Positions 1 to 59,499 of a stretch of 64,000 nt of DNA are shown here, in pieces. The number at the start of each line of letters is the position of its first letter. Position 1 is the stretch's first letter. Source of the stretch: a virus (Duplodnaviria; Heunggongvirae; Uroviricota; Caudoviricetes); the IMG/VR virus record IMGVR_UViG_3300008120_000059, positions 1 through 64,000 of that record; one strand, 5' to 3'. Made by a program: the position numbers and the translations under genes. The notes beneath the pieces are model-generated. The model saw only the letters and a program-made list of their open reading frames with translations. It had not been told where the DNA came from and made no database searches.

Positions 1-170
1 GTAGTTGAAACACCCGAAGCAAAATATATTGCAACATGTGTTGGTTGTGGTAAGGTATCCAAAGCCCATCGTTTAAGAAGTAGGTCTTATTCATGTAGCA
101 ATTGTTCGGGTGGTAGTTACAACCCAAAGTACAAATTGGAGTTCAGACCAAACCCCATATTCACAGGGGG

Positions 171-240
171 GATTTAGTTTGGCGACAAAGTTGAAAAAAA
201 ATTTGGTATAAAAGAAAAATTGTTATATCTTTGTAATACA
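171..240 (+). promoter_or_regulatory. Promoter cassette copy 1: GATTTAGTTTGGC motif plus Bacteroidetes-type -33 TTTG (202-205) and -7 TATCTTTG (226-233)
   Basis: Near-identical copies of the ~70 nt unit at 928-995 and 1317-1380; 20 nt spacer between TTTG and TAnnTTTG; ATG of ORF at 257. Confidence 0.55.
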
Positions 241-256
241 ATTAAATTAAAAAAGT

Positions 257-847
257 ATGGGATACACAACCGATTTCGAAGGTGGATTTGAATTCAGTCG
301 TCCACTTACTAGTGATGAAAAGAATTACATCACCAAGTTCAACAACACTCGTAGAATGAAACGAAATGTTGAGAAACTCTATGAGTTATTTAAGGGTGAA
401 CACGGAAACCCTTTTCTACCAAAAGAAGAAACCTACGGAAACGATGGTGAATACTTTGTTGGTGGTAATGGGTTCGCAGGTCAAGACAAGGATGATAGTA
501 TTGTCGATTACAATACACCTCCAGGTCAACTAGATTTTCTAACAACTAACTACAACGAAAGGTGGACACAAAATGATTTGAGAACACGAGAGGGTAAATG
601 TCAACCTGGTTTATGGTGTCAGTGGACTACGGATGAAAATGGAACTCATCTAATATGGGATGGTGGTGAGAAGTTTTACAACTACGTTGAGTGGTTGAAA
701 TATATCATCAATCATTTCTTTGAGAAGTGGGGTGTGAAATTAAATGGTGAGGTTTATTGGAAAGGCGAGGATGGTGAGGACATGGGTAAGATTGTTGTAA
801 AGGACAACTGGGTCACAGTAAAATACGCGAGGATTACTTATGATTGA
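257..847 (+). CDS. hypothetical protein (196 aa)
   Basis: Long ORF directly behind promoter cassette 1, followed by a strong rho-independent terminator; no recognizable domain. Confidence 0.6.
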   Translation: MGYTTDFEGGFEFSRPLTSDEKNYITKFNNTRRMKRNVEKLYELFKGEHGNPFLPKEETYGNDGEYFVGGNGFAGQDKDDSIVDYNTPPGQLDFLTTNYNERWTQNDLRTREGKCQPGLWCQWTTDENGTHLIWDGGEKFYNYVEWLKYIINHFFEKWGVKLNGEVYWKGEDGEDMGKIVVKDNWVTVKYARITYD

Positions 848-861
848 TTGGTTTAAGGAGA

Positions 862-892
862 GAACCCCACAGAAATGTGGGGTTTTTTATTA
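862..892 (+). terminator. rho-independent terminator (AACCCCACA-gaaa-TGTGGGGTT + T-run)
   Basis: Perfect 9 bp GC-rich stem followed by TTTTTTAT, immediately 3' of ORF 257..847. Confidence 0.7.
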
Positions 893-927
893 AAAACCTC
901 GTACACATATATTATGGGATGGACATT

Positions 928-995
928 GATTTAGGTTGGCAACAAAGTTGAAAATAAATTTGGTATAAAAGAAAAATTGTTATATCTTTGTATTA
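928..995 (+). promoter_or_regulatory. Promoter cassette copy 2 (GATTTAGGTTGGC; -33 TTTG 959-962; -7 TATCTTTG 983-990)
   Basis: Sequence repeat of 171-240; precedes ATG at 1011. Confidence 0.55.
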
Positions 996-1010
996 CTAAA
1001 ACATTTTATT

Positions 1011-1322
1011 ATGTACAAGAAAAAAATTCAAGACCTACAAGAGGAAATAATCAAAAAAATTAAAAACAAATGTTCGACCATTATTGGTGAGAACCAACAA
1101 ATCACATTTAGAAATGTGTTTGGAGTTTGGGTTACCGAAGGTATGTACGAAGATGATGGTAGAGTTCAATACGCGGCGTATGGAATATTACCTGATGGTA
1201 CTGTGATGTCGGAAAGTTTTGGTGATAGTATAGAACTCTCGTTAGTTGAATTGGACATATATGAACTCGCACACATCATAGACATCCTTGAGTCGGATGA
1301 CTTTACCGTCGAGGACATTTAG
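1011..1322 (+). CDS. hypothetical protein (103 aa)
   Basis: ORF behind promoter cassette 2; stop codon TAG embedded in the next ATTTAGTTTGGC motif. Confidence 0.55.
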   Translation: MYKKKIQDLQEEIIKKIKNKCSTIIGENQQITFRNVFGVWVTEGMYEDDGRVQYAAYGILPDGTVMSESFGDSIELSLVELDIYELAHIIDILESDDFTVEDI

Positions 1323-1380
1323 TTTGGCAACAAAGTTGAAAATAAATTTGGTATAAAAGAAAAATTGTTATATCTTTGTA
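1317..1380 (+). promoter_or_regulatory. Promoter cassette copy 3 (ATTTAGTTTGGC; -33 TTTG 1347-1350; -7 TATCTTTG 1371-1378)
   Basis: Sequence repeat of 171-240. Confidence 0.55.
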
Positions 1381-1382
1381 TT

Positions 1383-1685
1383 ATGAAAAAAGAAAAAGTA
1401 ATCCACTCGGTATCATCTCACTTGAGAGATAAGTCATATGAGATGAGAATTATTCAAAATGAGAATAATGTCAAATTGAAAATGACCTACGAAGCGTACA
1501 ACGCACAAGAAAGGTTTACAGGTGAACAATTCATCAATGGTAAATGGGAACACACATTTGGAATGTTGGATTTGGGTGTTCTACCTGATAAGTCAATCTA
1601 CGTGTGTAGTGAAGGAAAAAGAGAAGATAAGGCCGAAAAGTTATTTGGTCTTGGTACAAAATTGTTTAACATCTTAAATCAATAA
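1383..1685 (+). CDS. hypothetical protein (about 100 aa; start uncertain)
   Basis: ORF track starts at TTG 1365, which lies inside the promoter -7 box. First ATG is 1383 (near-leaderless); alternative ATG at 1443. Confidence 0.45.
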   Translation: MKKEKVIHSVSSHLRDKSYEMRIIQNENNVKLKMTYEAYNAQERFTGEQFINGKWEHTFGMLDLGVLPDKSIYVCSEGKREDKAEKLFGLGTKLFNILNQ

Positions 1686-1689
1686 TACA

Positions 1690-2235
1690 ATGGGATTAGA
1701 CATGTATCTCAAGAAGAAAACCTATGTGAAAAATTGGTCACATATGGAACCCGAACAACTTCACAAGGTGACAGTTAAGAAGGGTGGGAAAGTAGTTAAG
1801 GAAATTCAACCCGACAGAATTTCATCCATCGAGGAACAGGTGGCGTATTGGAGAAAGGACAACCACATCCACGCATGGTTTGTAAACAATGTACAGGACG
1901 GTGAGGACGATTGTGGTGAGTATTATGTAGACCGCGAAAAACTCAAAGAGTTGGTGGATACCTGTGGGAAAGTTAGAGCAACCCTGAAAAATTCTCCGAC
2001 GAAGAAGGTTCAGGTGAAAGTTGGTTGGCAAGGTGGTAAGGAATTGTATGAGGACATCGATGTCTACACCGACACCGAACTTGCGGAAGAACTACTACCA
2101 ACCCAAGCAGGTTTCTTTTTCGGGGGAACTGAATATGATGAGTGGTATCTAAAAGGTTTAGAAGATACCATCAAACAAATCACTCCCTTATTAGAGGAAA
2201 AGGAAGGAGATTTCTACTACCAATCATCCTGGTAA
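1690..2235 (+). CDS. hypothetical protein (181 aa)
   Basis: ORF 5 nt after the previous stop; followed by a hairpin (AAGAGGAT...ATCCTCTT) at 2245-2278. Confidence 0.6.
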   Translation: MGLDMYLKKKTYVKNWSHMEPEQLHKVTVKKGGKVVKEIQPDRISSIEEQVAYWRKDNHIHAWFVNNVQDGEDDCGEYYVDREKLKELVDTCGKVRATLKNSPTKKVQVKVGWQGGKELYEDIDVYTDTELAEELLPTQAGFFFGGTEYDEWYLKGLEDTIKQITPLLEEKEGDFYYQSSW

Positions 2236-2244
2236 AAAAATAAA

Positions 2245-2280
2245 AAGAGGATATCGTTTGGTAAAATGGTATCCTCTTTA
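2245..2280 (+). terminator. putative hairpin terminator
   Basis: 8 bp inverted repeat AAGAGGAT/ATCCTCTT with 18 nt loop; weak T-tract. Confidence 0.35.
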
Positions 2281-2318
2281 TACCTTTGTATTAATGAACA
2301 GCTTAAAATAGATAGATT

Positions 2319-2450
2319 ATGCCGAACTGGTGTCAAAACTCAATAACAATAACAGGTACTGAAGAGCAGATTGGTTTGCTCACTCGTATCCTTAATGATG
2401 TTCCAAAGTCCGAACCTGAAAAGTGTATCGTGTTTGAGTATTACACAAGA
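2319..2450 (+). CDS. N-terminal segment of a probably frameshifted gene (continues in the 2450..2743 frame)
   Basis: TAcCTTTG -7-like box at 2281-2288 upstream. First ~44 codons look protein-like, then become low-complexity while the overlapping frame 2450..2743 becomes protein-like. Confidence 0.3.
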
Positions 2451-2743
2451 TGTATGGTGTGGATGTGGAGTTGTTCTACTCGGAGGGTGGAAGTGATTTC
2501 TGTGGCAAAACAACCATTAATCAAAACGGAGTGGTTGAGGATGATTATGGTTATCTCGAAGGTAACTATCGTTTTGACGAAGAATACTTTTGGGAATCCC
2601 TTTTCCAAAATGAGATGGAATATGCAATCGATAACGAAACTAGTGTTGATGACTTCGTTGCACAATTCCCTTATGTGGATACGGAAGACGCAAAAGAAAT
2701 CCGTAGAATATACGAAGAAGAACTAAAGGAAAAAGTAAAATAA
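2450..2743 (+). CDS. hypothetical acidic protein (97 aa; possibly C-terminal part of the 2319 gene)
   Basis: Acidic, well-composed ORF overlapping the 3' part of ORF 2319..2726 in another frame. Confidence 0.45.
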   Translation: MYGVDVELFYSEGGSDFCGKTTINQNGVVEDDYGYLEGNYRFDEEYFWESLFQNEMEYAIDNETSVDDFVAQFPYVDTEDAKEIRRIYEEELKEKVK

Positions 2744-2749
2744 ATTCAT

Positions 2750-3010
2750 ATGGAAGATTTGAAAATATTATCGACAGCAGAACCTCAAGAAGAATTAACC
2801 TACCAAGAATGGGTAGACGCATTGAGAACTCAAGAGAATGTCATTGTTTCATCCAAATACCACGCAAGAACCATCGAGCAACGGATTAAAGTTGATGAAG
2901 CAATTCAAATGAAAAGAGAAATGGAAAACTCTGAAGTAAAATTTTCCGACGGGACAGCCGAACCCCGAATTTTGTTTGGCATGTTAAAATCTGTATTAAA
3001 CTTCTTTTAA
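2750..3010 (+). CDS. hypothetical protein (86 aa)
   Basis: ORF in tight plus-strand array. Confidence 0.5.
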   Translation: MEDLKILSTAEPQEELTYQEWVDALRTQENVIVSSKYHARTIEQRIKVDEAIQMKREMENSEVKFSDGTAEPRILFGMLKSVLNFF

Positions 3011-3015
3011 AGATT

Positions 3016-3495
3016 ATGGGACGAGTAAATAAAACAATCGAGGGTGTCTTCATTGACATCGTAGGGTCAAAGAGTGAACTGAGTTCATATGACCAATTCA
3101 TCAACCACGGTGATGGTAAGAAATATTCTAAGGAGCTTAAAGAGCTCACTGGTTTATATAAGAACTTAATCACTGAGAGTAAATTAACATTCGAAAAACT
3201 AGCATCACTCGAGGAGATTATAATCCAAATGAGAATTCGTGAGGACCTCAGTGATATCAAGTTGACTCAAGTTCGTGAGTACATCTACGCAAGGACTCCT
3301 TTCTACCGTAAGGATAAGAAGTCAAAAGATGTCCGTGTTATTGTCGACAAGATTGAGTTTCACCCTGAGGAGGATTTGGAGATTTTGTCTGGCGACAAGG
3401 AGTTCATGACCAAAGCCAAGATGAAGTTAGCTCAGGCTATGGACCTCGAGATTGAGGAAAACATCCGAGTATTCAAATCAACATTTAAAAAGTAG
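3016..3495 (+). CDS. hypothetical protein (159 aa)
   Basis: ORF in tight plus-strand array. Confidence 0.55.
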   Translation: MGRVNKTIEGVFIDIVGSKSELSSYDQFINHGDGKKYSKELKELTGLYKNLITESKLTFEKLASLEEIIIQMRIREDLSDIKLTQVREYIYARTPFYRKDKKSKDVRVIVDKIEFHPEEDLEILSGDKEFMTKAKMKLAQAMDLEIEENIRVFKSTFKK

Positions 3496-3499
3496 AGGT

Positions 3500-3799
3500 A
3501 TGAAAACAGAAACAATTTCAACAGGTATTGGACTCTCAATTTACAAAGGTGATTGGGATGGAGCACAGTGGACACTTACTGGTTTCCCTAAAAAAGAAGC
3601 AATTGGTCACGACTACGACTCTGCCTATGACTTCGAGGACTGTGTCAAGAGAAACATCAATTGTAGTGGAATCGATTTTGACAGTGAGTATTGTCAGTTC
3701 TACGCATACGCAAAGACCAAAGCTCGTTTGGTGAGTTTTGCAAACCAAATCAAGAAACACTTTGAGAAAGCAAAGCAACTGAAGGAGGAGATGTACTGA
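3500..3799 (+). CDS. hypothetical protein (99 aa; start moved to ATG 3500)
   Basis: Track ORF 3452..3799 overlaps the upstream gene; internal ATG at 3500 lies 5 nt after the upstream stop. Confidence 0.5.
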   Translation: MKTETISTGIGLSIYKGDWDGAQWTLTGFPKKEAIGHDYDSAYDFEDCVKRNINCSGIDFDSEYCQFYAYAKTKARLVSFANQIKKHFEKAKQLKEEMY

Positions 3800-3942
3800 A
3801 TTTAGATTGGCAAAAATATTCTAGAAAAATTTGGAATATTCTAGTAAATGTATTAATTTTGAATATAGAACATTAAAAATCAATAGGTGTATGACAAACA
3901 AAATCAAATTAGGAACTGAGGTCGTGGGGTATCCGAAGTTCA

Positions 3943-4386
3943 ATGATACTTGTCATACACGAGGACCATAAAGACGACAAACTGGTTTGGAAAGATTATC
4001 CTGCAACCATCGGTGTCGACTCAGGTCAGTGTGGAATCTTCTCCAAAGAATCTTACCGTGACGACTCTATTACAGAACGAATCGGTTTGGGAGATGGTGA
4101 CATTTCATTCTTTGGTGTAACACCTTGGAAAGAAATGACCGAGGCCCGTGAGGAAGAACAAGGTGAAAAATGGTACATCAGTATGTGTTCTCGTACCTTG
4201 GGTGATAGTCGATACGGTGTGTATGACGAGGGAGTAGTTTCTTCATCTGGTTTTGGTGATGGTTCTTACACATTATATGTTGCAAAGAAAAGAGGAAAGA
4301 TTATTGCAATGTGTGTTGACTTCGCGGTGGAGGAAGACGAAGTAATTGATTTTGAATTTTTTCGTGATATCCATATTGAGAAGTAA
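3943..4386 (+). CDS. hypothetical protein (147 aa)
   Basis: ORF; start region is embedded in the 3' arm of an 11 bp inverted repeat (GTGTATGACAA / TTGTCATACAC). Confidence 0.5.
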   Translation: MILVIHEDHKDDKLVWKDYPATIGVDSGQCGIFSKESYRDDSITERIGLGDGDISFFGVTPWKEMTEAREEEQGEKWYISMCSRTLGDSRYGVYDEGVVSSSGFGDGSYTLYVAKKRGKIIAMCVDFAVEEDEVIDFEFFRDIHIEK

Positions 4387-4410
4387 TAAATTTTATTTAG
4401 ATTTGGAGTT

Positions 4411-4701
4411 ATGAAAAAAATATTATTTATATCAGCACTTGGATTAGTTGGTTGTGGAACCAATCGAACATATATCCAACACGGGGACAAGGCATTAGTA
4501 AGTGGACACAAAGTTTACTTTATCGATTGCAACATAACCCGAGAAGTAATTAAACCCCAATGGGATAAAGGTTCATATGGTGATACCATGAAGGTATACT
4601 TAGTGGATACACTGACATTTATGAATATGTGTAGAAAAGCATCACCATGTGGATGTTCACCAGCAGGAACAACCGCAAATAAAACTGTAACAAAAACTTA
4701 G
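4411..4701 (+). CDS. putative lipoprotein (96 aa)
   Basis: N-terminus MKKILFISALGLVGC: hydrophobic signal then Cys (lipobox-like). Confidence 0.5.
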   Translation: MKKILFISALGLVGCGTNRTYIQHGDKALVSGHKVYFIDCNITREVIKPQWDKGSYGDTMKVYLVDTLTFMNMCRKASPCGCSPAGTTANKTVTKT

Positions 4702-4705
4702 TATT

Positions 4706-5167
4706 ATGTTCAATACACAGAAACCTCAAGAACCGATTCACATATTCACCCCATCTCAGTGGTTGAATATTGGTTGGCTGGCCATGGTACCAGCAACTTA
4801 CTTCGTACACCCATATGCATGTGCATTGGCGGTAGTCATCTATATCTACAAATATTTCGAAGTAGATTGTTGGAGGTATGAATTCTATGATGACTGTGTA
4901 ATTGAACGAAAAGGGGTCTTCAGTGTGACTCGAGAATCTGTGAACTATTTCAGGATTAAATCTGTAATGGTCGACGAACCATTTTGGATGAGATTACTTG
5001 GACTGTCTGTTGTTCGAGTTATTACTTCAGAGCAATTTAAACAGCAACTAATATTTCAAGCCGTACCACACGGTGAAGGTATTCAAGCGTTTTTACAGCA
5101 CAACGCAAGAGTGGAGAGACAAAATATGGGAATTAGGGATTTTGATGTATTCAATACTCACCTGTAG
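4706..5167 (+). CDS. membrane protein with bacterial PH-like (YdbS/YdbT-type) domain (153 aa)
   Basis: Two N-terminal hydrophobic helices followed by a segment resembling bacterial PH domains. Confidence 0.4.
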   Translation: MFNTQKPQEPIHIFTPSQWLNIGWLAMVPATYFVHPYACALAVVIYIYKYFEVDCWRYEFYDDCVIERKGVFSVTRESVNYFRIKSVMVDEPFWMRLLGLSVVRVITSEQFKQQLIFQAVPHGEGIQAFLQHNARVERQNMGIRDFDVFNTHL

Positions 5168-5181
5168 CAATATTTAAAGTC

Positions 5182-5529
5182 ATGATAGTAGTAGAACCAC
5201 GGATTCAGGAACAGTTCATGAGCAGGGACAAGGTATACTTCACGGACCCTACCACAGGTGAAATAATAGAAGACACCATTACCGACGTTAATGACAACGT
5301 AGTGATGGGAAAGAAATTCAACTTGACTGATTTATATTGGAAGGGTGAGTTAAACGTATATAGGTTAGAGTGTCACATATGTGGATTCAGTATACCAGCA
5401 CCTCTATCGCAATTTCAGGTAGATGGAATAAAAGGTAAGCAGCAATTATTACCATCCACATGTGGTGTATGTTTAGAAGAGTCACGGTACCCTGATAACC
5501 CTGAGGAGGGAATCATACTGTGGATTTAG
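5182..5529 (+). CDS. hypothetical protein with CxxC...CxxC cluster (115 aa)
   Basis: ORF; Cys pairs CHIC ... CGVC suggest a zinc ribbon; stop TAG embedded in ATTTAGTTTGGC motif. Confidence 0.5.
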   Translation: MIVVEPRIQEQFMSRDKVYFTDPTTGEIIEDTITDVNDNVVMGKKFNLTDLYWKGELNVYRLECHICGFSIPAPLSQFQVDGIKGKQQLLPSTCGVCLEESRYPDNPEEGIILWI

Positions 5530-5618
5530 TTTGGCATTAGTTCTTTGAAAGATTTTTTTATAGGATTTGGTTTTTAGGATTTTCTTGTGTATATTTTATA
5601 TATCAAAATCAATATATT

Positions 5619-5888
5619 ATGGCAACAAAGAAGTCCACAACTAAAAAACCCGCCAGCAAACCAGCGGCGAAACCAGCTCCAGCCCCCAAAAAGGGTGGGA
5701 AGAAAGCAGTAGCAGCTCCGGCTATGAAAACAACCGTAAGTACTTACGTACCTGTTTCACACCACATCTACTATGATGGTTTCTCTTACCGTGTACGTGC
5801 TAGCGTTAACGGAACCCGTTACTCTCAGAACTTCTCCTCCAAGAAGAAAGCTTTCGAGTTCCGTAAGAGTATCTTGAGTAATATGTAA
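5619..5888 (+). CDS. Lys/Ala-rich DNA-binding protein with AP2-like (integrase Arm-type) DNA-binding fold
   Basis: N-terminal KKPASKPAAKPAPAPKKGGKK histone-H1-like tail. C-terminal YRVRASVNGTRYSQNFSSKKKAFEFRK resembles the AP2 / P4-integrase N-terminal DNA-binding motif. Promoter-like TTTG/TATATTTT upstream. Confidence 0.5.
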   Translation: MATKKSTTKKPASKPAAKPAPAPKKGGKKAVAAPAMKTTVSTYVPVSHHIYYDGFSYRVRASVNGTRYSQNFSSKKKAFEFRKSILSNM

Positions 5889-5913
5889 TAGACGACTCAA
5901 GTCTCTTAACCAA

Positions 5914-5950
5914 ATCCTGTGATTAACGTCACGGGATTTTTTTTTTAATG
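5914..5950 (+). terminator. rho-independent terminator (ATCCTGTGA..TCACGGGAT + T10)
   Basis: 9 bp stem with one G-U pair, followed by ten T residues 3' of ORF 5619..5888. Confidence 0.65.
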
Positions 5951-6165
5951 AGAATCCTGACGACGGGACCTGAGATGGTCAATTTAGTTTGGCGGAAAGG
6001 TTGTTTAGACAATTGATGTTGTAACAATAAATCCACCGATTTAGTTTGGCGGAATCAGAATCCTCAGAATCGTCCGACGGTACCGATTTTGTTTGGCACA
6101 AACTAACTAACACTTGTTAGTTCAGGGACCTGAGGAGGTCGATTTAGTTTGGCGGGGGAATGGTA
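5950..6165. repeat. iteron-like cluster: four copies of GATTTAGTTTGGCGG (5981, 6037, 6082 variant, 6148) plus longer repeats GGGACCTGAGRWGGTCRATTTAGTTTGGCGG and a palindrome AACTAACACTTGTTAGTT
   Basis: Direct repeats at about 45-65 nt spacing seen in sequence. Same core motif also at 171, 928, 1317, 3799 and 5524. Confidence 0.6.
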
Positions 6166-6978
6166 TTTATATGTAAAGTAAATGAGATGATTAAACTAAC
6201 AGAAACTTTAGAAGGTGATGATGTCCAAAAGTTTCACGACGCTTTACCACAAATAGGTGACTCACTTAAAGGACTGACCGATGGGACCATTACAATAAAA
6301 TATGTTGTAGCTGAAGACCCAACCCAAGGAACAATAGATGGTGTCCCTTTTATAAGTGAATGTCTATTGAAACTATTTGTTGATGTTAACAGGGTTTATC
6401 CTGAGATGATTAATGACATCTACATTTTGGTTGGCAGAAAAATTCAAGAGATTGGGTTCGGTGAATTTCCGTTCAAGTTAAGTATAAGGTCACTTCACCT
6501 TATTAACGGACCTTTAATTATTGATTTATTAGAAGAATCGTTTGACAGAAATTATACCAATCACCTCAGGTATGATAATCCAACAATACAGTACATTTTG
6601 TCTGGCCAATATTCCCTTGTATTACCTCAAGATGTATTACCTAAGTTTTTTGACCAAATGGATGAGTGGATAAAAATTTTAATAAAGAGAGCGACGGTGT
6701 ATTACACCGTATATAAAAAAGGAAAGATAGATGACCATGAGTATGAACTCGTAGACAACCCAGTTATTAGAGTTGTGGTACGCGGGAAAAAAGATATAAA
6801 AAATGAAAAAGATTTAATTCCGTTCATTGATTCAAAATTTAAAACCATAGATGGTATCGAAAAAGGTAGTCCCGATTTCCCCTATAACTTACAAGATAAT
6901 ATTATTGATAAGTTAGAAAAAAAGTTCAGGGAGAAACACAACGTAAGAATTTTTATTGACGACACGAGACGTGTATGA
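6160..6978 (+). CDS. hypothetical protein (272 aa; probable start at ATG 6187)
   Basis: Long ORF followed by terminator hairpin 6999-7030. Confidence 0.55.
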   Translation: MVFICKVNEMIKLTETLEGDDVQKFHDALPQIGDSLKGLTDGTITIKYVVAEDPTQGTIDGVPFISECLLKLFVDVNRVYPEMINDIYILVGRKIQEIGFGEFPFKLSIRSLHLINGPLIIDLLEESFDRNYTNHLRYDNPTIQYILSGQYSLVLPQDVLPKFFDQMDEWIKILIKRATVYYTVYKKGKIDDHEYELVDNPVIRVVVRGKKDIKNEKDLIPFIDSKFKTIDGIEKGSPDFPYNLQDNIIDKLEKKFREKHNVRIFIDDTRRV

Positions 6979-6998
6979 CATATATACGTATATACATT

Positions 6999-7030
6999 AA
7001 CCCCCTTGTATGACACTTGGGGGTTTTTTA
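6999..7030 (+). terminator. rho-independent terminator (CCCCC-ttgtatgacactt-GGGGG + TTTTTTAT)
   Basis: GC stem plus T-tract; loop contains the GTATGACA motif. Confidence 0.65.
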
Positions 7031-7229
7031 TTTACATCTGTTTTTCTGAAAATATAAAAATATAACTCTTATTTCGAACAAGGGTCAATCCCCTACTATG
7101 TCCCACAATTTCCCACTTTAATCCACTTTTATGGATTGTAATACGACCAGCGGGATTTCTTGTCATACATTCGTATATATCTGAGAAAAATTCCTTACGA
7201 CAAAAAATGTCTGGATTACAGGGTTAAAA

Positions 7230-7439
7230 TCAAGGGTTTTTTAACTCTTTCTGTATTACATTAGGGGTATCGTGGGTCAAAATCCTATCACTACTGTACA
7301 TCCAAACAGAGGGTAAACCACTATAATGACATACCTGTTTTTCTCTCTCTTCAACCAGTTTCTTCTTAACCGATTCGTCAAAATAAACCCCATCAGATTC
7401 CATATCCGAGAGTGGTCTGTACAGTATAAATTTTTTCAT
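7230..7439 (-). CDS. hypothetical protein (69 aa)
   Basis: ORF at the convergence zone; weak. Confidence 0.3.
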   Translation of the reverse strand: MKKFILYRPLSDMESDGVYFDESVKKKLVEEREKQVCHYSGLPSVWMYSSDRILTHDTPNVIQKELKNP

Positions 7440-10316: not shown

Positions 10317-10516
10317 TTGTGTTTGTGTTCAACATACCACATTATTCTAAAAGTACCCAAAACAAAAAAGTATGTATCAAATTCATTTATCTCATCGGTT
10401 GATTTACAAATCCCCGTGTGATATGCCGGTATTTTGGTCTCGATACTTTTAGCCGACTTAGGAAAAGTATTAAACGCAATACTATATCTCTTTGTTAGTT
10501 TGAATGATTTATACAT
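10295..10516 (-). CDS. hypothetical protein (73 aa)
   Basis: ORF. Confidence 0.4.
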   Translation of the reverse strand: MYKSFKLTKRYSIAFNTFPKSAKSIETKIPAYHTGICKSTDEINEFDTYFFVLGTFRIMWYVEHKHKCGVTNG

Positions 10517-10517
10517 A

Positions 10518-10697
10518 TTATTCTAATTTACTGTTAAACAATTCTATGGCCTTCTCTTTATCTTTTTCTTGAAAGATGTTATCAATAATAAACTTGGCTT
10601 CTTCCATTGTGCACTTATCTTCAATGACATCAATGTATGTTTCTACATCAACACCCAATTCCCCCGCCATAAGTTCATCCATCAAATCATGAAACAT
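10518..10697 (-). CDS. small acidic protein (59 aa; below ORF-track cutoff)
   Basis: Read from reverse strand: MFHDLMDELMAGELGVDVETYIDVIEDKCTMEEAKFIIDNIFQEKDKEKAIELFNSKLE; tightly packed between neighbours. Confidence 0.4.
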   Translation of the reverse strand: MFHDLMDELMAGELGVDVETYIDVIEDKCTMEEAKFIIDNIFQEKDKEKAIELFNSKLE

Positions 10698-10698
10698 A

Positions 10699-10887
10699 TT
10701 ACTCTGATTTAGTTTCTATACCGTTTTTCCAATCTTTCCAATTATCAAAATCTTTCAGTTTTTCATAATGGTCATCTTCCATTTTTCTTGCTTCGTTTAG
10801 TATATCGTCATAAATTCCACTATACCTCGTATCCAATTGAAGTTTGGTGATTAACCAATTTACCGGTGTTAGTTTTTCGTTACTCAT
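10699..10887 (-). CDS. hypothetical protein (62 aa)
   Basis: ORF. Confidence 0.4.
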   Translation of the reverse strand: MSNEKLTPVNWLITKLQLDTRYSGIYDDILNEARKMEDDHYEKLKDFDNWKDWKNGIETKSE

Positions 10888-11722
10888 TTGTATTTTTTAA
10901 TCTTTTTATTATATCGGTCATTCTTGTAAACATTTCCATACCCACAGGGATGGATAAGAGGGAAACCAAAAATTGATTTATATAAGAATACATTGCAATG
11001 GCTTCACCTTGTGTTAGTTTCACATTTTCGTGAGTGAAAATGATTAATGATAAAACCAAGAAGATGGTCTTTACCATATTGAGTGAAGTCCAATTCTTTC
11101 CTTGTAGGGTGGATGCTGAAATCCAAATCCTTCTTCTCCTTTTAAAGAATGAATCAATCAAACCTCTATCGTTTGTGTTGAGCACATCCATTTTCTTTTC
11201 GTGTTGGTTGTGACTAATTTTTGTGGACTGAGCAATCTTACCGTAGAACTTCCATACAATAAAACAAATGAACGGAGCACATAACAATACAATAAAACCA
11301 GTAACCACGTGGGACATGAATATAAAAAACAATGTTCCAATTATGGAAAGTATTGACATTATATAATAGTGTATGTGGTGTTCCAAGAAATCCACAATAC
11401 TATGTGCTAAATCCGTTCTACCCAACCTCGTTGAGACATCCGAATCCTCTGAACTATCCAAATAGTTAAACACAATATCATTGTAGATAGATGTGTAAAT
11501 CTTGGTGTCAAATACCATACGTTTATAAATGAAAAAATTGGAGAGAGATTCTATTAAAAGAAAAACCCCAATCCAATAATACTCCTTATTCAATAAACCA
11601 TCTATTGATTTACCCAACACATAGGGTTCAACCAAGAAAATGATTTGTGCAATAAAGATGTAGAAGTATATTAATAATAATGACCTCTTATATTTTTCAA
11701 TAATTTTATAAACGTACCGCAA
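10880..11722 (-). CDS. polytopic membrane protein, ABC-exporter transmembrane-domain-like (280 aa, no ATPase domain)
   Basis: About 5-6 hydrophobic helices; N-terminal region resembles type I ABC exporter TMDs; no Walker motifs present or adjacent. Confidence 0.45.
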   Translation of the reverse strand: MRYVYKIIEKYKRSLLLIYFYIFIAQIIFLVEPYVLGKSIDGLLNKEYYWIGVFLLIESLSNFFIYKRMVFDTKIYTSIYNDIVFNYLDSSEDSDVSTRLGRTDLAHSIVDFLEHHIHYYIMSILSIIGTLFFIFMSHVVTGFIVLLCAPFICFIVWKFYGKIAQSTKISHNQHEKKMDVLNTNDRGLIDSFFKRRRRIWISASTLQGKNWTSLNMVKTIFLVLSLIIFTHENVKLTQGEAIAMYSYINQFLVSLLSIPVGMEMFTRMTDIIKRLKNTNE

Positions 11723-11852
11723 AGTGAAATGAGATTTATTTTATTCTTTATCAAAATAAGTTGTGAATAGTGATAACAACGCAATACAAACGCATAAACC
11801 GATTACGATTATTCCAACTACTTGTGCTACTGGATGTAAATTTTCCATAATA

Positions 11853-23943: not shown

Positions 23944-25053
23944 TTATTTTATGTTTAGTAAATATTTTTTAAATAATTCGTGCTCAACTGACACGCAGAT
24001 TCTAGAATATGATGACCATAAGTCCTTATCGTGATAAACAAACTTATCAAGACCAACAGCACCGATTCTATGTTGAAATAAGTAATCTTCCGATTTATTT
24101 ATAACCGCGAAGATACCTAATGGTTGACCACCTTGGTAAATTTCTTCAACCAGTAGGTTTTTCTCTTTTAGGTAATTTACATTCTTAAAGATATTATTAG
24201 TTGTTATATTTTTAAATTGTTCTAATGAACTTCTTCCTTCGGGTGTGGTTAAAACTTTCTCAATAATCATTTGAGATGGGGAACATACGGCATTGAATTC
24301 ATAAAGTAAACGAATGTTTAATTCTGAATTAAAATCCTTGTCCTTACAAAAAATGAAACCCATTCTTAAACCCGATAAACCTACCCATTTTGAAAAAGAT
24401 TCGGTGATAATAACATTATCAAGATGGGCAACTTTATCAAAGAAATCATCTTCATAAAATAACTTACGGTATGGTGAATCAAATATTATAATCGCACCTG
24501 TCATCGATATCTCATAAATCTTTCTGAAAAGAATGTTGTCATCTATTTTTACACCTGTAGGATTATTTGGGTCACAAATAAAAATACAAGATGATTCACT
24601 AAAATTGGATGCTTCTAAAGATTCTAATGATTCATAAAATGAAAAAGACTTTTGTCTAATTGTTGCCATTTTAGAATAAGAACCCCAATAAAATTTTGGG
24701 AAATAAATATTTTCTACATTTAATAATTGGATAACCAAATCTAACGCAGGCATACCACCTGGTGTGATTGCAATATTATTGATGAAATTAGGTGAATTTG
24801 CAAATGAAGGAAAATATTCTGAAACGATAGAATGTCTAAATGTTTCAATACCCAAGTTAGGTGCATATACTTGAAACTCTTTTGAGTTAAAATCAATTTG
24901 TTTCATAACTCCCGTCAAATCGATTTCCGTAACAGCGTTTACACCTCTATTTAATTCGAGATATGAATTACCTGATTCTTTTGCCGCCCTTTTAACTTTC
25001 TGACCAATCCCTACTATCGAAGAGAAGGTTGCATTCGATATATTTACTTTCAT
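23944..25053 (-). CDS. PLP-dependent aminotransferase, class I/II fold
   Basis: ITESFSKWVGLSGLRMGF (SFSK Lys motif), FDSPY (DxAY-like) block; 369 aa. Confidence 0.65.
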   Translation of the reverse strand: MKVNISNATFSSIVGIGQKVKRAAKESGNSYLELNRGVNAVTEIDLTGVMKQIDFNSKEFQVYAPNLGIETFRHSIVSEYFPSFANSPNFINNIAITPGGMPALDLVIQLLNVENIYFPKFYWGSYSKMATIRQKSFSFYESLESLEASNFSESSCIFICDPNNPTGVKIDDNILFRKIYEISMTGAIIIFDSPYRKLFYEDDFFDKVAHLDNVIITESFSKWVGLSGLRMGFIFCKDKDFNSELNIRLLYEFNAVCSPSQMIIEKVLTTPEGRSSLEQFKNITTNNIFKNVNYLKEKNLLVEEIYQGGQPLGIFAVINKSEDYLFQHRIGAVGLDKFVYHDKDLWSSYSRICVSVEHELFKKYLLNIK

Positions 25054-44438: not shown

Positions 44439-45764
44439 TTAATTACTTAAGGGTGCTTTAATCGATGGGTGTGATTGATAATTTTCGATTTGAAAATCCT
44501 TATTTTCCAAATGAGTTATTAAAGATGAGTCTTCAGATAATGATTTATAAAATTCATCGGTCTTCATATGTTTTAGTTTGGGTAATTTATAAGGTTCTCT
44601 TGTGTATCGTGGTATTTTATATATCTCATAATATTCAGACATACCTCCACCAAATGGTGCTAAGTCTTTCAACGCACTTTTATAACCATTAGGACCCATC
44701 GCCTCTTTTAACATACCTTCTCTCTCTTCATGTGTATACTTTCTACCGATTTGTTCTCTTGCTTGTTCAACATGGTTACTATACAAATGAGTATCACCTA
44801 AATTACCAATCAACTCATCAGGTACCATATTTACTTCTTTAGCAATAATCTCAAGTAACAAACCGTAAGAAGCAATATTGAATGGTAGACCTAAGAATGT
44901 GTCTACTGAGCGTTGATTCCACATTAAAGAGATTGCTCGTTTAGGAACTCTTAAACTATCCATGTGAACATCGTGATAATCACTACTTTGATTTAAAGGG
45001 TCTTTTGTTGAGTTATAATAATTAATCCTTTCATCTAAACTCAACTCTCTCGTATAAACTTGAAATCCATAATGACAAGGTGGAAGAACCATTTGGTCCA
45101 GCTCTCCAACATTCCAAGCATTGACCATTAATCGTCTTGAGTCTGGATTTGTTTTAAGGTCGTTGATTAGGTTTGTGATTTGGTCTATTGAATTGTTTTG
45201 GTATTCTATTTTGACACCATACTTGGTAACATCTTCACCGATTTCAATTGCTTTTAGTACTCTGTGTTGGTCAGAACCTTTTACATCCTTTAAGTCGTAA
45301 TTAGTCACATTCTTTCTACCCCATCTTCTCCATTGCTTACCATACACAGGTCCGAGGTCACCCCACTTCTTAGCAAACTCATCATCGGTTTTTATTTTGT
45401 TGATGAATTCTTCTTTTGTTAATCGAAATCCTAACTCTAACATTTTTTCTTTTGACATATTAGGTAAGATTTTGGCATCTTCAATTAGATAGTTCTTATA
45501 CGCATCACCATCCCAAATATGACAATTGTTATCAACAAGGAACTTGATGTTTGTATCACCACGAAGGAACCATAACAATTCGGTTACCATCGTCTTCCAC
45601 GCCATTTTCTTGGTTGTAAGTAATGGAAACCCATCGGACATTTTATGACGGATTGTATAACCAAAAATAGATTTGGTTCCTGTACCTGTACGGTCTTTCT
45701 TTTCTACCCCATAATCTATAATAGTTTGGAGTAAGTCTGTGTATTGTTTATCTAATTTGTTCAT
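44439..45764 (-). CDS. thyA: thymidylate synthase (ThyA-type; or related dUMP hydroxymethylase) with three ~35 aa insertions and C-terminal extension
   Basis: DLGPVYGKQWR, SRRLMVNAWN, LPPCHYGFQVY, PFNIASYGLLLEIIA, GDTHLYSNH signature blocks; 441 aa vs about 265-320 typical. Confidence 0.8.
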   Translation of the reverse strand: MNKLDKQYTDLLQTIIDYGVEKKDRTGTGTKSIFGYTIRHKMSDGFPLLTTKKMAWKTMVTELLWFLRGDTNIKFLVDNNCHIWDGDAYKNYLIEDAKILPNMSKEKMLELGFRLTKEEFINKIKTDDEFAKKWGDLGPVYGKQWRRWGRKNVTNYDLKDVKGSDQHRVLKAIEIGEDVTKYGVKIEYQNNSIDQITNLINDLKTNPDSRRLMVNAWNVGELDQMVLPPCHYGFQVYTRELSLDERINYYNSTKDPLNQSSDYHDVHMDSLRVPKRAISLMWNQRSVDTFLGLPFNIASYGLLLEIIAKEVNMVPDELIGNLGDTHLYSNHVEQAREQIGRKYTHEEREGMLKEAMGPNGYKSALKDLAPFGGGMSEYYEIYKIPRYTREPYKLPKLKHMKTDEFYKSLSEDSSLITHLENKDFQIENYQSHPSIKAPLSN

Positions 45765-47701: not shown

Positions 47702-48826
47702 TTATTCTTCTTCATCTTTTCGATAACTTTCCAAGAGTTCCTCCCCTGAAAGTGTACCGTATTTATTTACAATTTTTTCGGTGTCTATTTCAACATTCAT
47801 CATGTGATGAACATTATTTAATTCTTCGGCTAATGATAAACTATCACTAATCACTTTAACGATTTTATATGGGTCCGCGTGTGATGCTGGTCTCCTGTCT
47901 TCAAGATAACCCTTCCATGTCTCACCAACGGATTTTGGTACACGGATAGATGCACCTCTGTCTGAGACACCCCAACTAAATTTATCAATAGATTGTGTCT
48001 CAAAATGACCTGTTAATCTCAAATGGTTATCAGAACCATAAGAGTCAATATGTTCTTGTGTTCTTGATTCAAAAGACCTAAAAATTGCATTGAAGTATTG
48101 TTCACCACCCTCTTCTCTCATTTTTTGATTTGAGAAATTTGTATGTAAACCTGAACCGTTCCATTCTCCGTGGGTCATCGGTTTGGGATGTAACTCAATA
48201 GAACGACCATATTTCTCAGCAATTTTATGTAAAAAATATCTACTCATCCATAAATCATCAGAAGCGGCAATTTTACCTGTTGCAAAAATTTGGTATTCCC
48301 ATTGACCTAATGCAACCTCTGAATTGGTTCCCTCCACATTGATGTCATATTTTAAACACATGTTCAAATGTTCATCAGAAATATTTCGACCAACAATATG
48401 TCCACCTACACCACAATAATAAATTCCTTGACCGTCAATGATACCATTTCTTTCAAATCCAAGAATTGGATTATTATGTGAAGAACGAATAAAATATTCC
48501 TGTTCAAATCCAACCCAAAAATTTACATCTTCCTCACCTACTTTTGCTCTATGATTTGATGGATGAATTTCATTATTACCATCTAAAACCTCACATAATA
48601 CATATACTGTATCAAGTGAACTATTTGTATGATATAATTTTACTGGCTTAAGATAACAATCTGAAAAGTTACCTTCCGCTTGTTTAGTTGAGCTTCCGTC
48701 AAACCCCCAATTGGGGATGTGTTTCAATTCAAATGGTGCCGGTAGGTCCACAATTTTTATTTTACTTCTGAGATTTGGCTCAGGGGAATACCCATCAAGC
48801 CATACGTATTCTACTTTTGTTTTCAT
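47702..48826 (-). CDS. glutamine synthetase type II (eukaryote-like GSII)
   Basis: EYVWLDG, NWGFDGSST, GFEQEY, YYCGVG, TNSEVALGQWEYQI, WNGSGLHTNFS, GASIRVP blocks align along the full 374 aa. Confidence 0.8.
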   Translation of the reverse strand: MKTKVEYVWLDGYSPEPNLRSKIKIVDLPAPFELKHIPNWGFDGSSTKQAEGNFSDCYLKPVKLYHTNSSLDTVYVLCEVLDGNNEIHPSNHRAKVGEEDVNFWVGFEQEYFIRSSHNNPILGFERNGIIDGQGIYYCGVGGHIVGRNISDEHLNMCLKYDINVEGTNSEVALGQWEYQIFATGKIAASDDLWMSRYFLHKIAEKYGRSIELHPKPMTHGEWNGSGLHTNFSNQKMREEGGEQYFNAIFRSFESRTQEHIDSYGSDNHLRLTGHFETQSIDKFSWGVSDRGASIRVPKSVGETWKGYLEDRRPASHADPYKIVKVISDSLSLAEELNNVHHMMNVEIDTEKIVNKYGTLSGEELLESYRKDEEE

Positions 48827-51258: not shown

Positions 51259-52716
51259 ATGATTACAATAGGTTACAGTACAAGAGAGTCCAACCCAAAA
51301 TTTCAAGAATATTTAAAAAAAACTTGTGGACACCCCAAAGTTCAAGTTATTGAAAAAGTAAACAATGGTGAAAAAAGTCTTTCACAAACTTACAATGAAA
51401 TTATTCAAGAGTCGATTCATGATATTGTCGTACTTTGTCATGATGACATTTACTTTAATACGACTTCGTGGGGTAGAAAATTAGTCAAACATTTTGAAGA
51501 ATCTGACTACGGGATTCTCGGTGTTGCCGGTACAACCAATATTCATGAGAGTGGTAGGTGGTGGACAGATAATACCAAAATGGTTGGTATTGTTAATCAT
51601 GAAAATGAGGGTAAAAAATGGGAATCGAGATATGCAAATGGAATCCCAAATTCAATTCACGAAGTTTGTTTAGTGGATGGTTTATTCATTGGAATCCACA
51701 AAAACAGAATAAAACACACTTTTGATGAGTCAGTACCGGGTTTTCATTTTTATGATATGGTATTCTGTACTAGCAATCACTTAAGTGAGGTAAACATCGG
51801 TGTTATATACAACATAAGAATCACTCACAAATCAATCGGAATGACCAATGATTCTTGGGAAAAGAATAGGGAATTTTACATTGAAAAATTTAAAGAGAAC
51901 CTACCAATTAATATAACACCAAAAATTGATTATGACATAACCAAACCAAAACAGTTTAAAGATAAATTTAATTTAATAGTTCAAACATCAAACGATAATG
52001 AAAATTTAATTCAGTTTTTTGAAAACATAAAAAAATTACCAGTGTTTGATAGTTTACAGATTTCACTCATCTCGACGGATACCAATATAGACAATATTAG
52101 AGAATTTGAATCTGAAAATATTAAAATTTACGAGGGTTTTTTTGATACATTAAATAAAAACTTATCAGTACTGAAATGGGATGAATCGTTTATGGAATCA
52201 AAAACAGATTTGTTATTTTTCAGTAATGATACTGTTACCGTATTGAACGACGTTTTCTCAAGTATGTATTCAATATTTAAGAGTGAAAAAAATACTTTTG
52301 GGTGCGTCTTTCCTACAGTATTAGAAAACGACCGAACAATTTTTTCAAATGGATTGGATATAGTTCAAAACAACGAACAGTTCAATTTAATTTTTAAAAA
52401 CAAATCATCTTTTTTCAATATTTTACACGGACACTTTCCAAACAATTTTGGTAGTATTAGTGACTTTTTTGCCACTACATCTACAAATTTAAAAATGATT
52501 GATTGGTTTGATATTAATTTAGAAACATCAATTTATAACTTAGATTTTGCGTTGAAAACTTTACTTAAAAAACGTAAAACATTCATTGACACAAACAGTG
52601 TGGTAATGATTGATATGGCATCAAAATTTGAAAAGGTTGATGTTGAATTAAAACAAGTCTTAGGTCAGTACATAAACTCACCTGAAATTAGAAAAAATAT
52701 CAAACAATTAAGATGA
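51259..52716 (+). CDS. two-domain putative glycosyltransferase (485 aa); N-terminal GT-A-like
   Basis: N-terminal Rossmann-like region with VVLCHDD (DxD-like); first gene of glycan island. Confidence 0.5.
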   Translation: MITIGYSTRESNPKFQEYLKKTCGHPKVQVIEKVNNGEKSLSQTYNEIIQESIHDIVVLCHDDIYFNTTSWGRKLVKHFEESDYGILGVAGTTNIHESGRWWTDNTKMVGIVNHENEGKKWESRYANGIPNSIHEVCLVDGLFIGIHKNRIKHTFDESVPGFHFYDMVFCTSNHLSEVNIGVIYNIRITHKSIGMTNDSWEKNREFYIEKFKENLPINITPKIDYDITKPKQFKDKFNLIVQTSNDNENLIQFFENIKKLPVFDSLQISLISTDTNIDNIREFESENIKIYEGFFDTLNKNLSVLKWDESFMESKTDLLFFSNDTVTVLNDVFSSMYSIFKSEKNTFGCVFPTVLENDRTIFSNGLDIVQNNEQFNLIFKNKSSFFNILHGHFPNNFGSISDFFATTSTNLKMIDWFDINLETSIYNLDFALKTLLKKRKTFIDTNSVVMIDMASKFEKVDVELKQVLGQYINSPEIRKNIKQLR

Positions 52717-53492
52717 TAAAAATTGTATCGGGATTTACAGAAAAAGGTGGTTCTACCACTTTTTTTATAAACTTAACAAATTTCTTAAATGAAAATGGTA
52801 TTGATTGCACATTTTACGGTAATCAGAATTACCATTTAGACAAATGTAAATCAGGGAACATTGAAAAAGATTTAAAGTATGAATCTGATGATATTGTAAT
52901 TACCCATTTTTTACAACTACAGGAAAGACCACCTGTTAAAAAAGTTATTTTGTCTTGTCATGAAAAATGGTGGTTCCCTGTTGGTAAAATTAAACAGTAT
53001 TGGGACCTGTGCGTGTTTTTACATGAAGAGCATCGAAAATATCACTCGGATTACAGGGGTGATTATGTAATAATACCAAACATCAAAGAAAATTTAATTA
53101 TTTCAAATAAAGAGCTGGTAAGAAATATTGCAGGAATTATTGGTACAATTGAAGACAGAAAACAGACCCATGTGTCAATACAAAGAGCATTAAAAGACAG
53201 GTGTGAAAAAATCTATTTGTTCGGTCACATCGGTGACCAAAACTATTTTGACAAATTGGTAAAACCTTTAATGAATCCAAGAGTAATTCATTACGGTCAC
53301 ACCACCAATAAACAAGAAATGTACGATATGATTGGTAAGGTATATCACTCATCAAAGGGTGAGGTTGCTTGTTTGGTTAAAGATGAATGTTATTTAACCG
53401 GTACAGAGTTTTATGGTAATGAAGAGACTATGAATGAAGTTTCTAAATTAAGTAACGAAGAGATATTAACACTTTGGAAAAACATATTTTAA
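52713..53492 (+). CDS. compact GT-B-like putative glycosyltransferase (259 aa)
   Basis: GGSTTFFINLTNFLNENG N-terminal and ...YHSSKGE... C-terminal blocks; weak. Confidence 0.4.
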   Translation: MIKIVSGFTEKGGSTTFFINLTNFLNENGIDCTFYGNQNYHLDKCKSGNIEKDLKYESDDIVITHFLQLQERPPVKKVILSCHEKWWFPVGKIKQYWDLCVFLHEEHRKYHSDYRGDYVIIPNIKENLIISNKELVRNIAGIIGTIEDRKQTHVSIQRALKDRCEKIYLFGHIGDQNYFDKLVKPLMNPRVIHYGHTTNKQEMYDMIGKVYHSSKGEVACLVKDECYLTGTEFYGNEETMNEVSKLSNEEILTLWKNIF

Positions 53493-53493
53493 A

Positions 53494-57460: not shown

Positions 57461-57466
57461 TTCAGT

Positions 57467-58057: not shown

Positions 58058-58068
58058 AAATTATAAAA

Positions 58069-59497: not shown

Positions 59498-59499
59498 TA

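Follow-up and report, generated by a model that had tools for sequence, protein, structure and literature searches.

The repeat array at positions 5950–6165 of the window examined here, a stretch of 64,000 nucleotides (nt) from the virus record IMGVR_UViG_3300008120_000059, is best explained as a dense cluster of binding sites within a regulon that extends over a whole block of genes, that is, as a putative docking place for a regulatory protein; this reading is drawn from the sequence and is given a probability of about 0.5. The window is that of an uncultured Bacteroidota-type phage, the repeated element is a 13-mer, GATTTAGTTTGGC, hereafter called motif-1, and the array follows a small gene encoding a protein of 89 amino acids (aa). 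The anatomy of the array, the restriction of the motif to one gene block, its phasing with promoters, the conservation of the layout among related phages and a lineage-specific evolution of the motif were all observed, and in its working the locus would come closest to a regulon of dispersed operators whose hub is autoregulated. A preliminary description had offered two alternatives, a replication origin and a binding array for a master transcription factor; promoter position, block restriction, conserved layout and lineage-specific motif evolution support the latter.

With at most one mismatch, motif-1 was found eight times in the 64-kb window against 0.11 expected from dinucleotide shuffles, none of 100 of which reached eight matches; the motif count that the preliminary description had named as a check thereby returned a strong enrichment, confined to the first 6.2 kb (Table 1). 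The array itself consists of four co-oriented copies at 5981–6153, located 3' of the terminator of the 89-aa gene at intervals of 57, 47 and 56 bp, two of them exact (6038 and 6141) and two carrying one mismatch (5981, AATTTAGTTTGGC, and 6085, GATTTTGTTTGGC). This agrees with the four-copy motif described earlier, as do a longer repeat around two of the copies, seen as 31 nt shared at 90% identity by 5965–5995 and 6125–6155, and a perfect 8+8 palindrome at 6105–6122. The stretch had also been called free of open reading frames (ORFs), which holds apart from a single ORF of 44 aa on the minus strand within 5950–6165. Tandem Repeats Finder did not call the array at 5950–6165, because its units have diverged too far beyond the core. 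Between the 89-aa gene and the array stands a strong hairpin of the intrinsic-terminator type at 5912–5939, a stem of 12 pairs with T10 after it, which the preliminary description had not listed, and homologues of the protein encoded downstream begin with MIKLTE, so that this gene probably starts at 6187 and not at 6160 and the spacer spans 5889–6186. A CRISPR-like array was considered and rejected, since the conserved core measures 13–16 nt where at least about 23 nt would be needed, and since the supposed spacers share words among themselves and with the spacers of other genomes.

The genes of the window lie on the plus strand up to 6978, on the minus strand to about 50.7 kb and on the plus strand again thereafter, and motif-1 belongs to the first of these blocks: a 12-mer form allowing one mismatch has 10 copies in positions 1–6200 and none in the remaining 57.8 kb. 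In the window and nine relatives each locus carries 5–13 copies of motif-1, nearly all on the plus strand and all in the plus-strand block that ends at the array, and the motif is absent from the 10 kb of minus-strand genes past it. Copies at 1316 and 5523 include the TAG stop codons of ORFs 1011..1322 and 5182..5529, respectively. The earlier claim of stop-codon overlap further along the block stands for the copy at 5523, whereas the one at 3799 (AATTTAGATTGGC) has two mismatches and shares a single base with a TGA stop. The position of the copy at 2968 is conserved in four relatives (L053, L054, L055 and L056). A pattern scan of viral contigs recovered 49 loci of this kind, many of them on contigs of 180–335 kb, which places the window in a family of uncultured jumbo phages. 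Megablast against the phage collection found no close cultured relative, tblastn with the 89-aa protein returned no match, and a scan of genome contigs for the host yielded three small contigs from metagenome-assembled genomes (Bacteroidota, Schleiferiaceae and one binned as Chlamydiota), which is weak host evidence.

The relation of motif-1 to promoters is regular. The cassettes at 171, 928 and 1316 are nearly identical, measure 70 bp each and follow the order motif, 18 nt, TTTG, about 20 nt, TAnnTTTG, of which TTTG, about 20 nt, TAnnTTTG is what we take to be the Bacteroidota primary-sigma promoter pattern, and the description of the motif as the head of promoter cassettes is confirmed at these three sites. 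The promoter of the small gene is a relaxed version, in which TTTG follows the motif by about 30 nt in the window and by 27–31 nt in six relatives, its -33 TTG lying 28–32 nt after the motif; the same layout of motif and small-gene promoter is present in L053, L056, L057, L058, L059 and L060. A strict promoter starts within 60 nt downstream of 23 of the 99 motif copies, compared with 4.4% of random positions in the same blocks, although many of these phased promoters are paralogous or orthologous cassettes and the counts are consequently not independent. The distances from motif to TTTG cluster at 8–9, 17–19 and 29–30 nt, steps of about one helical turn, which suggest a protein positioned, with respect to RNA polymerase, on a single face of the DNA. 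The host-type promoters of the minus-strand block carry no motif-1, so that the motif is specific to one promoter class. After the last array unit stands a different element, a TATTTATA-N2-TAAAG box, which is conserved in relatives ahead of the homologous gene and which, judged from its sequence, is probably a second (middle or late) class of promoter. The same box also precedes minus-strand genes at 34310, 30553 and 35962, one of which encodes a peptidoglycan-binding protein, and the gene downstream of the array therefore probably belongs to another promoter class than the block before it.

The motif evolves by lineage while the layout is retained. The more distant lineages checked possess their own variants, ATATTGTCTGGCA, TTTACTGGGG, ATTATGACYGGCC or TTTACTGGAG, used likewise in the plus-strand block; the motif of L088 is TGCCAAAGAATAT, which reads as an inverted ATATTCTTTGGCA, and its array appears inverted relative to the gene. 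The coding-embedded copy at window position 3381, which encodes EILSGDKEFM, has a homologous site in each lineage that carries the local variant, and that dispersed 12-mers change together in this way is indicative of a trans-acting reader. Arrays bracket the small gene in most of the 49 loci, one standing before its promoter and one past its terminator, with about five copies in total that are divided as 1+4 in the window, 3+2 in L044, 4+1 in L054 and L039, 3+2 in L059 and 2+3 in L055. Across lineages, in a 12-mer search with two mismatches allowed, the unit length is mostly 45–48 bp, with a minority of 52–59 bp. The units have G+C-rich flank words in common, among them GGGACC, CTGAGATGGT and CAGGTGACCCCGGAATC; GGGACC was found in 15 of 51 array units, and in 9 of these it precedes the core by 17 nt. 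Among near relatives whole units have been gained or lost while the cores and the terminator are invariant, the terminator after the 89-aa gene being unchanged in five relatives; unit 2, with its core at 6038, is wholly absent from L053, which shows that units come and go as single blocks. The TGTTGTAACA box keeps its offset of 129–147 nt past the gene end in the window, L056, L057 and L049 (4 of 38 non-redundant loci), and an inverted repeat is retained at the palindrome site in L103 and L053, with its center changed or its arms shifted.

Such gains and losses bring to mind the remnants of mobile promoter cassettes or recombination boundaries, comparable with the promoter-stem-loop (PeSL) cassettes of T4-type phages, by which genes would be shuffled with no dedicated factor. 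PeSL cassettes carry early promoters and recur between the small early genes of a mosaic block, and here too repeated promoter cassettes occupy gene boundaries in a mosaic small-gene block: three of them are nearly identical 70-bp copies (171, 928 and 1316), the motif lies at gene boundaries and overlaps stop codons, the gene content of the block is mosaic among relatives, and whole units are gained and lost. The conserved part, however, is a short core upstream of the promoter that also occurs with no promoter, in arrays and inside genes, and that evolves in concert within each lineage. A core of 12–13 bp is too short for homologous exchange, the cores are invariant while their flanks drift, the array units have no promoters, and every copy in a genome, even a coding-embedded one, shows the same lineage variant, which again indicates a trans-acting reader; shuffling of cassettes is on this evidence an improbable explanation. 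Equally improbable is a host factor as the reader, be it an extra contact for the host RNA polymerase (UP-element-like or a -33-like TTTGG) or a Chi-like signal, in which case the lineage variants would mirror different hosts. In favor of it, the core ends in TTTGG and recalls the ATTTGG -33 elements of the same cassettes, the -33 offsets are about one helical turn apart, the strand bias inside the block is strict, and motif variation does not track the phage's own AP2-like protein (the 89-aa protein). Host-type promoters elsewhere in the genome nevertheless lack the motif, promoterless arrays and conserved coding-embedded copies would not be expected of a polymerase element, and the inverted motif pairs of the relatives do not suit an orientation-dependent Chi-like signal.

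These inverted pairs also bear on whether the motif acts in DNA or in RNA. They are frequent in the block spacers of relatives, such as L053 (1447), L054 (2227 and 3172), L059 (2665) and L070 (452, 3541 and 3961), with loops of 3–4 nt or of about 35 nt containing TTGATTTTATT, and they sit with a terminator on one side and, on the other, an A-rich run that precedes the next promoter; none was found in the window's 6.2 kb of the block. The few minus-strand copies of motif-1 are the second arms of such pairs between a terminator and the next promoter. Among 32 non-redundant pairs the agreement of the arms at variable positions, set against that expected under independence, was 9/8.7, 14/13.3 and 11/11.8, which is the level of independent sites and indicates no selection for pairing; a hairpin role of the pairs was rejected, as the arms do not co-vary. 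A signal at the level of RNA, whether for transcript processing, for recognition by an RNA-binding protein or as a component of a terminator or antiterminator, is thus faced with a lack of compensatory pairing, even though nearly all copies are intergenic and on the sense strand. The folding of the spacer is stronger than that of shuffled sequences (z = -4.4), and its low folding energy is accounted for by the terminator and the palindrome. Weak matches to the double-stranded RNA-binding domain (Pfam dsrm) appear in 12 of 35 members of the 89-aa family, with a best E of 0.005 that is below the Pfam cut-off, and the fold searches place AP2 and arm-type domains first. A double-stranded DNA site is favored because the array of L088 is apparently inverted and would be antisense in a transcript, because the array lies 3' of a strong terminator and 5' of the next promoter-like box, and because no Rfam match was obtained in the window, either at the gathering score or at an E of 1. 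An RNA-level role is accordingly considered very unlikely.

The 89-aa protein has 120 homologues, all of them unannotated. Its AlphaFold2 (AF2) model displays strands at residues 44–47, 50–52, 57–63 and 66–72 and a helix at 75–87, forming an antiparallel sheet packed on the C-terminal helix, and the modelled domain (residues 41–89) has a pLDDT of 86–95 as means over blocks of 10 residues. Two arm-type domains were ranked at the top by Foldseek, at a weak E of about 0.5, and over two fold searches the closest folds included the arm-type structures 3jtz, 3rmp and 1bb8, with AP2 also among the best, at weak scores. Neither Pfam nor PHROG was matched by the protein, its family profile had no sequence match in the Protein Data Bank (PDB), and hidden Markov model (HMM) searches gave no match to arm-binding families. 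The AP2 or integrase arm-type call of the preliminary description has on its side a confident model and two weakly scoring fold searches and finds no sequence-profile match; such a fold is a reasonable, though unproven, prediction from the model. The downstream protein of 264 aa has homologous ORFs in the relatives and 110 database homologues but matched nothing in Pfam or by sequence in PDB, and its medium-confidence model resembled only generic ferredoxin-like folds.

A second motif restricted to the block, GTAT(G/T)ACA, has the same sequence in every lineage. Over 35 non-redundant loci (L053–L101) its plus-strand density is 0.5–2.3 per kb in the interval from -10 to +2 kb relative to the small gene, and it occurs not once in the roughly 8 kb beyond at each locus, about 300 kb in total. 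Frequently it adjoins motif-1 directly (TTTGGC-GTATGACA), and in L088 seven copies stand in an array past the gene. A literature search found nothing specific on the system or on GTATGACA. In the window a perfect 10-bp inverted pair, TGTATGACAA and TTGTCATACA, 53 nt apart at 3888–3960, brackets the start codon of ORF 3943..4386 and could be an operator pair or a translation-masking stem.

Several observations weigh against the proposed regulon or its service by the adjacent protein, beyond the dependence among the phasing counts noted above. No strict promoter accompanies 76 of the 99 motif copies and most strict promoters of the block have no copy within 60 nt, so that the motif is not simply a promoter part. 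The spacing of 45–48 bp amounts to about 4.4 helical turns, by which neighboring sites face different sides of the helix and simple cooperative binding is not obvious. Covariation of domain and motif, tried as proof of binding, spoke against a simple link: identity in the AP2-like domain falls to 28/42 among genomes that have ATTTAGTTTGGC in common, whereas lineages identical at 35–36/42 positions use different motifs, TTTACTGGGG and ATTATGACYGGCC. The domain does not follow the motif, and the idea that the neighboring protein is the dedicated reader of the repeats finds no support from covariation. By its constancy GTAT(G/T)ACA fits the conserved domain better and may be the real target of the 89-aa protein, for which reason the reading of motif-1 by this protein is put forward only tentatively, at rather less than an even chance.

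In the regulon proposed, the repeats would be a high-density cluster of an asymmetric site of 12–13 bp that a sequence-specific protein recognizes in double-stranded DNA, further copies of this site being scattered over a co-directional block of small genes, presumably the one that a large Bacteroidota phage expresses early or for host takeover. A single copy 9, 18 or 30 nt upstream of the -33 element would hold the bound protein on one face of the helix, from where it could touch RNA polymerase and turn this promoter class up or down. At the block's far end the site is repeated to form arrays of about 46–57-bp units, which flank the small AP2/arm-type-like gene and stand just ahead of a gene with a different type of promoter; there they could load many copies of the factor, providing feedback on the small gene and control over the boundary between gene classes.

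The origin offered as one alternative in the preliminary description found no support. An iteron-type origin would make the flanked gene that of the origin-binding protein, as in the replicons P1 incC-repA-incA and F ori2-repE-incC, where the initiator gene (repA or repE) is bracketed by arrays of iterons and a promoter lies beside the upstream array, and it is true that here a gene for a candidate DNA-binding protein stands between two arrays of direct repeats whose copy number differs among relatives. Yet no AT-rich unwinding element was found, the G+C content (GC) of 100-nt windows over 5900–6150 being 0.41–0.45 compared with about 0.33 in the surroundings; matches to the DnaA box (TTATCCACA, at most one mismatch) number 33 in the window against 31.6 expected, with none at 5700–6300; and neither neighbor of the array resembled a Rep-type initiator in profile and fold searches, winged-helix Rep proteins included. 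Iterons comprise at least three direct repeats of about 17–22 bp in helical phase, their units measuring about 19–22 bp in helical register, whereas the core here is 13–16 nt, its intervals of 57, 47 and 56 bp are irregular, the units are 46–57 bp long, and the motif is dispersed over at least 10 kb of the plus-strand block, at promoters. A cumulative GC-skew minimum at the array had been suggested as a further check; within the 64-kb window the skew follows the gene strand, with the minimum at about 51 kb and a local maximum at about 6–7 kb, near the array, that results from convergent transcription. The locus resembles iteron replicons only in its repeat bracketing and departs from an origin in every other respect that could be tested, and an origin at the array is the most improbable of the explanations weighed here. 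If an origin is nearby, the better candidate is the junction at 6970–7265, where the plus- and minus-strand blocks converge. Among genomes whose small proteins are 62–93% identical it shows a mean column identity of 75% and is more conserved than the coding genes around it, its layout comprising two plus-strand GTATGACA boxes, a terminator, an invariant AT-rich run and two minus-strand GTATKACA boxes, with GAAAATATAAAAATATAAC and GATTGTAATACGACCAGC among the invariant runs. Neither RNA covariation nor an Rfam match was detected in the junction, which is a possible origin, packaging or boundary element.

The junction has also to be considered with an architectural or boundary element, in which the arrays, the dispersed copies and the basic-tailed protein would build a nucleoprotein structure that marks or insulates the segment, with silencing of the block after takeover, a centromere-like handle or a pause during DNA entry, like the first-step-transfer boundary of T5, as candidate roles. 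The arrays are distal in the block, with about 0.8 kb between them and the convergence of the two blocks; the modal unit of 45–48 bp is kept in all lineages, the apparently inverted array included, and may be likened to the 43-bp repeats of sopC; the 89-aa protein has a histone-H1-like tail; both block-specific motifs end abruptly at the end of the block; and the adjoining junction is conserved at the level of DNA. Two dedicated DNA words, one evolving by lineage and one universal, would then mark the block, and the arrays of 46-bp period around the histone-tailed AP2-like gene would form a chromatin-like or boundary structure, in place of a set of ordinary operators, that switches the whole segment on or off or stages its entry or handling. 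In a test for a centromere of the parC, sopC or tubC type, the array and a small candidate DNA-binding protein were present but no ParA-, ParM- or TubZ-like neighbor was found, nor any other recognizable partner among the neighbors, and the promoter phasing is superfluous to such a model. An architectural role, in the general form as well as in that of the two words, is considered unlikely.

Comparison with known systems places the proposed regulon between several precedents. The C1 operators of phage P1 are asymmetric sites of about 17 bp, scattered over the genome and in part paired, and their regulator controls many operons as well as itself. Motif-1 is similarly an asymmetric site dispersed in a large phage genome with some copies paired, yet C1, the repressor of a temperate phage, is a large helical protein, whereas the candidate here is a beta-sheet domain of 45 aa, and the sites here stand upstream of -33, not over the promoter, and form arrays of 46–57 bp. 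The arm-binding domains of integrases bind as monomers to a number of direct repeats, each about 10 bp long, that are spread over a few hundred bp, and the N-terminal arm domain of tyrosine integrases (lambda, Tn916, HPI and P4-like) is among the closest folds of the 89-aa protein; here, by contrast, there is no recombinase catalytic domain or attachment-site context, and the sites extend across a 10-kb block. The nearest precedent is the crAss-like phage phi14:2 of Cellulophaga baltica, in which tripartite middle promoters have a third conserved block upstream of -35/-10-like elements (bioRxiv 10.1101/2020.03.07.982082). The likeness is one of layout, both being Bacteroidota phages in which one class of host-type promoters, a temporal class in phi14:2, is preceded by an upstream block; the paper on phi14:2 reports no promoterless arrays, inverted pairs or flanking of a gene for a DNA-binding protein (bioRxiv 10.1101/2020.03.07.982082). 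The phage studied here is moreover not crAss-like, as its helicase is at best 36% identical to those of large Bacteroides (DAC) phages.

Other features of the block and its surroundings are as follows. In the window (5182–5535) the zinc-ribbon-like gene that precedes the small gene terminates within the first copy of the motif, while in L059 (9600–9830; L011 is the same contig) its reading frame continues through array units and thereby acquires an acidic Gly/Pro-rich tail, so that array DNA can enter coding sequence. At 2319–2743 the window has two overlapping ORFs in different frames (2319..2726 and 2450..2743) where L046, L102 and L103 have a single gene of 201–204 aa with a DUF1281_C match; such an overlap suggests a frameshift, pseudogene or sequencing error. 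L103 carries at 10369–11799, in the minus-strand block just past the junction, a gene for an IS605 OrfB/Cas12f-like TnpB that is not present there in the window. Further along, the window encodes an aminotransferase (23944–25053), a thymidylate-synthase-like protein (44439–45764) and a glutamine-synthetase-like protein (47702–48826), the second of which, at 441 aa, is long for its family, its Pfam match extending over about 340 residues for 227 profile positions; about a dozen plus-strand genes, a glycosyltransferase first, occupy 51259–63368. Together these genes suggest, by their sequence similarities, DNA hypermodification or glycan synthesis. No tRNA was found in the window.

Table 1. Coordinates of the sequence features in the 64,000-nt window.
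Feature	Position	Strand	Remarks
GATTTAGTTTGGC, at most one mismatch	171, 928, 1316, 5523, 5981, 6038, 6085, 6141	all +	all within the first 6.2 kb
Promoter cassette 1	171..240	+	motif-1, 18 nt, TTTG, 20 nt, TATCTTTG
Promoter cassette 2	928..997	+	layout as in cassette 1
Promoter cassette 3	1316..1385	+	layout as in cassette 1; motif holds the stop codon of ORF 1011..1322
Motif-1 copy AATTTTGTTTGGC	2968..2980	+	3' end of ORF 2750..3010; 35 nt to the next start codon; no promoter
Motif-1 copy GATTTTGTCTGGC	3381..3393	+	coding-embedded, ORF 3016..3495
Promoter cassette 4	3799..3870	+	degenerate motif-1, 18 nt, TTTG, then TAATTTTG
GTAT(G/T)ACA	3889(+), 3951(-), 6973(+), 7008(+), 7144(-), 7168(-), 7253(+)		
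Motif-1 copy, exact, heading the promoter of the 89-aa gene	5523..5535	+	contains the TAG stop of ORF 5182..5529
Bacteroidota-type promoter of the 89-aa gene	5566..5597	+	TTTG (5566-5569), 20 nt, TAnnTTTT (TATATTTT, 5590-5597); relaxed pattern
Gene of the 89-aa protein	5619..5888	+	Lys/Ala/Pro-rich disordered N-terminal tail and conserved 45-aa beta-sheet-plus-helix domain (predicted)
Intrinsic-terminator-like hairpin and T-run	5912..5949	+	ends the transcript of the 89-aa gene
Array unit 1	5965..5997	+	G+C-rich flank GGGACCTGAGATGGTC and core AATTTAGTTTGGCGG
Near-palindromic box TGTTGTAACA	6017..6026		between units 1 and 2
Array unit 2, core GATTTAGTTTGGCGG	6038..6052	+	motif match
Array unit 3, core GATTTTGTTTGGC	6085..6097	+	motif match
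Perfect 8+8 palindrome AACTAACA-CT-TGTTAGTT	6105..6122		read from the sequence
Array unit 4	6125..6155	+	GGGACCTGAGGAGGTC and core GATTTAGTTTGGCGG
TATTTATA-TGTAAAG (TATTTATA-N2-TAAAG) box	6164..6178	+	after the last array unit; candidate second-class promoter of the downstream gene
Downstream gene	6187..6978	+	264 aa from the likely start; follows the array in most lineages

To our knowledge, almost nothing is known of the timing of gene expression in large uncultured phages of Bacteroidota, and the locus provides several handles on it, namely a short DNA word that delimits one class of genes in dozens of genomes, a second word common to all lineages, and a new and widespread family of tiny proteins, predicted to have an AP2/arm fold, that are encoded between the arrays; a tempting annotation of the locus as an origin is at the same time removed as unsupported. 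If the chromatin-like structure were to prove true, free-standing AP2/arm-fold proteins would be organizers of phage genomes at the level of the segment. If instead the link between protein and motif holds, it would supply a testable pair of regulator and operator for phages with no cultured host, an arm-type domain standing free outside recombination, and a sequence rule by which this class of genes could be annotated in metagenomes.

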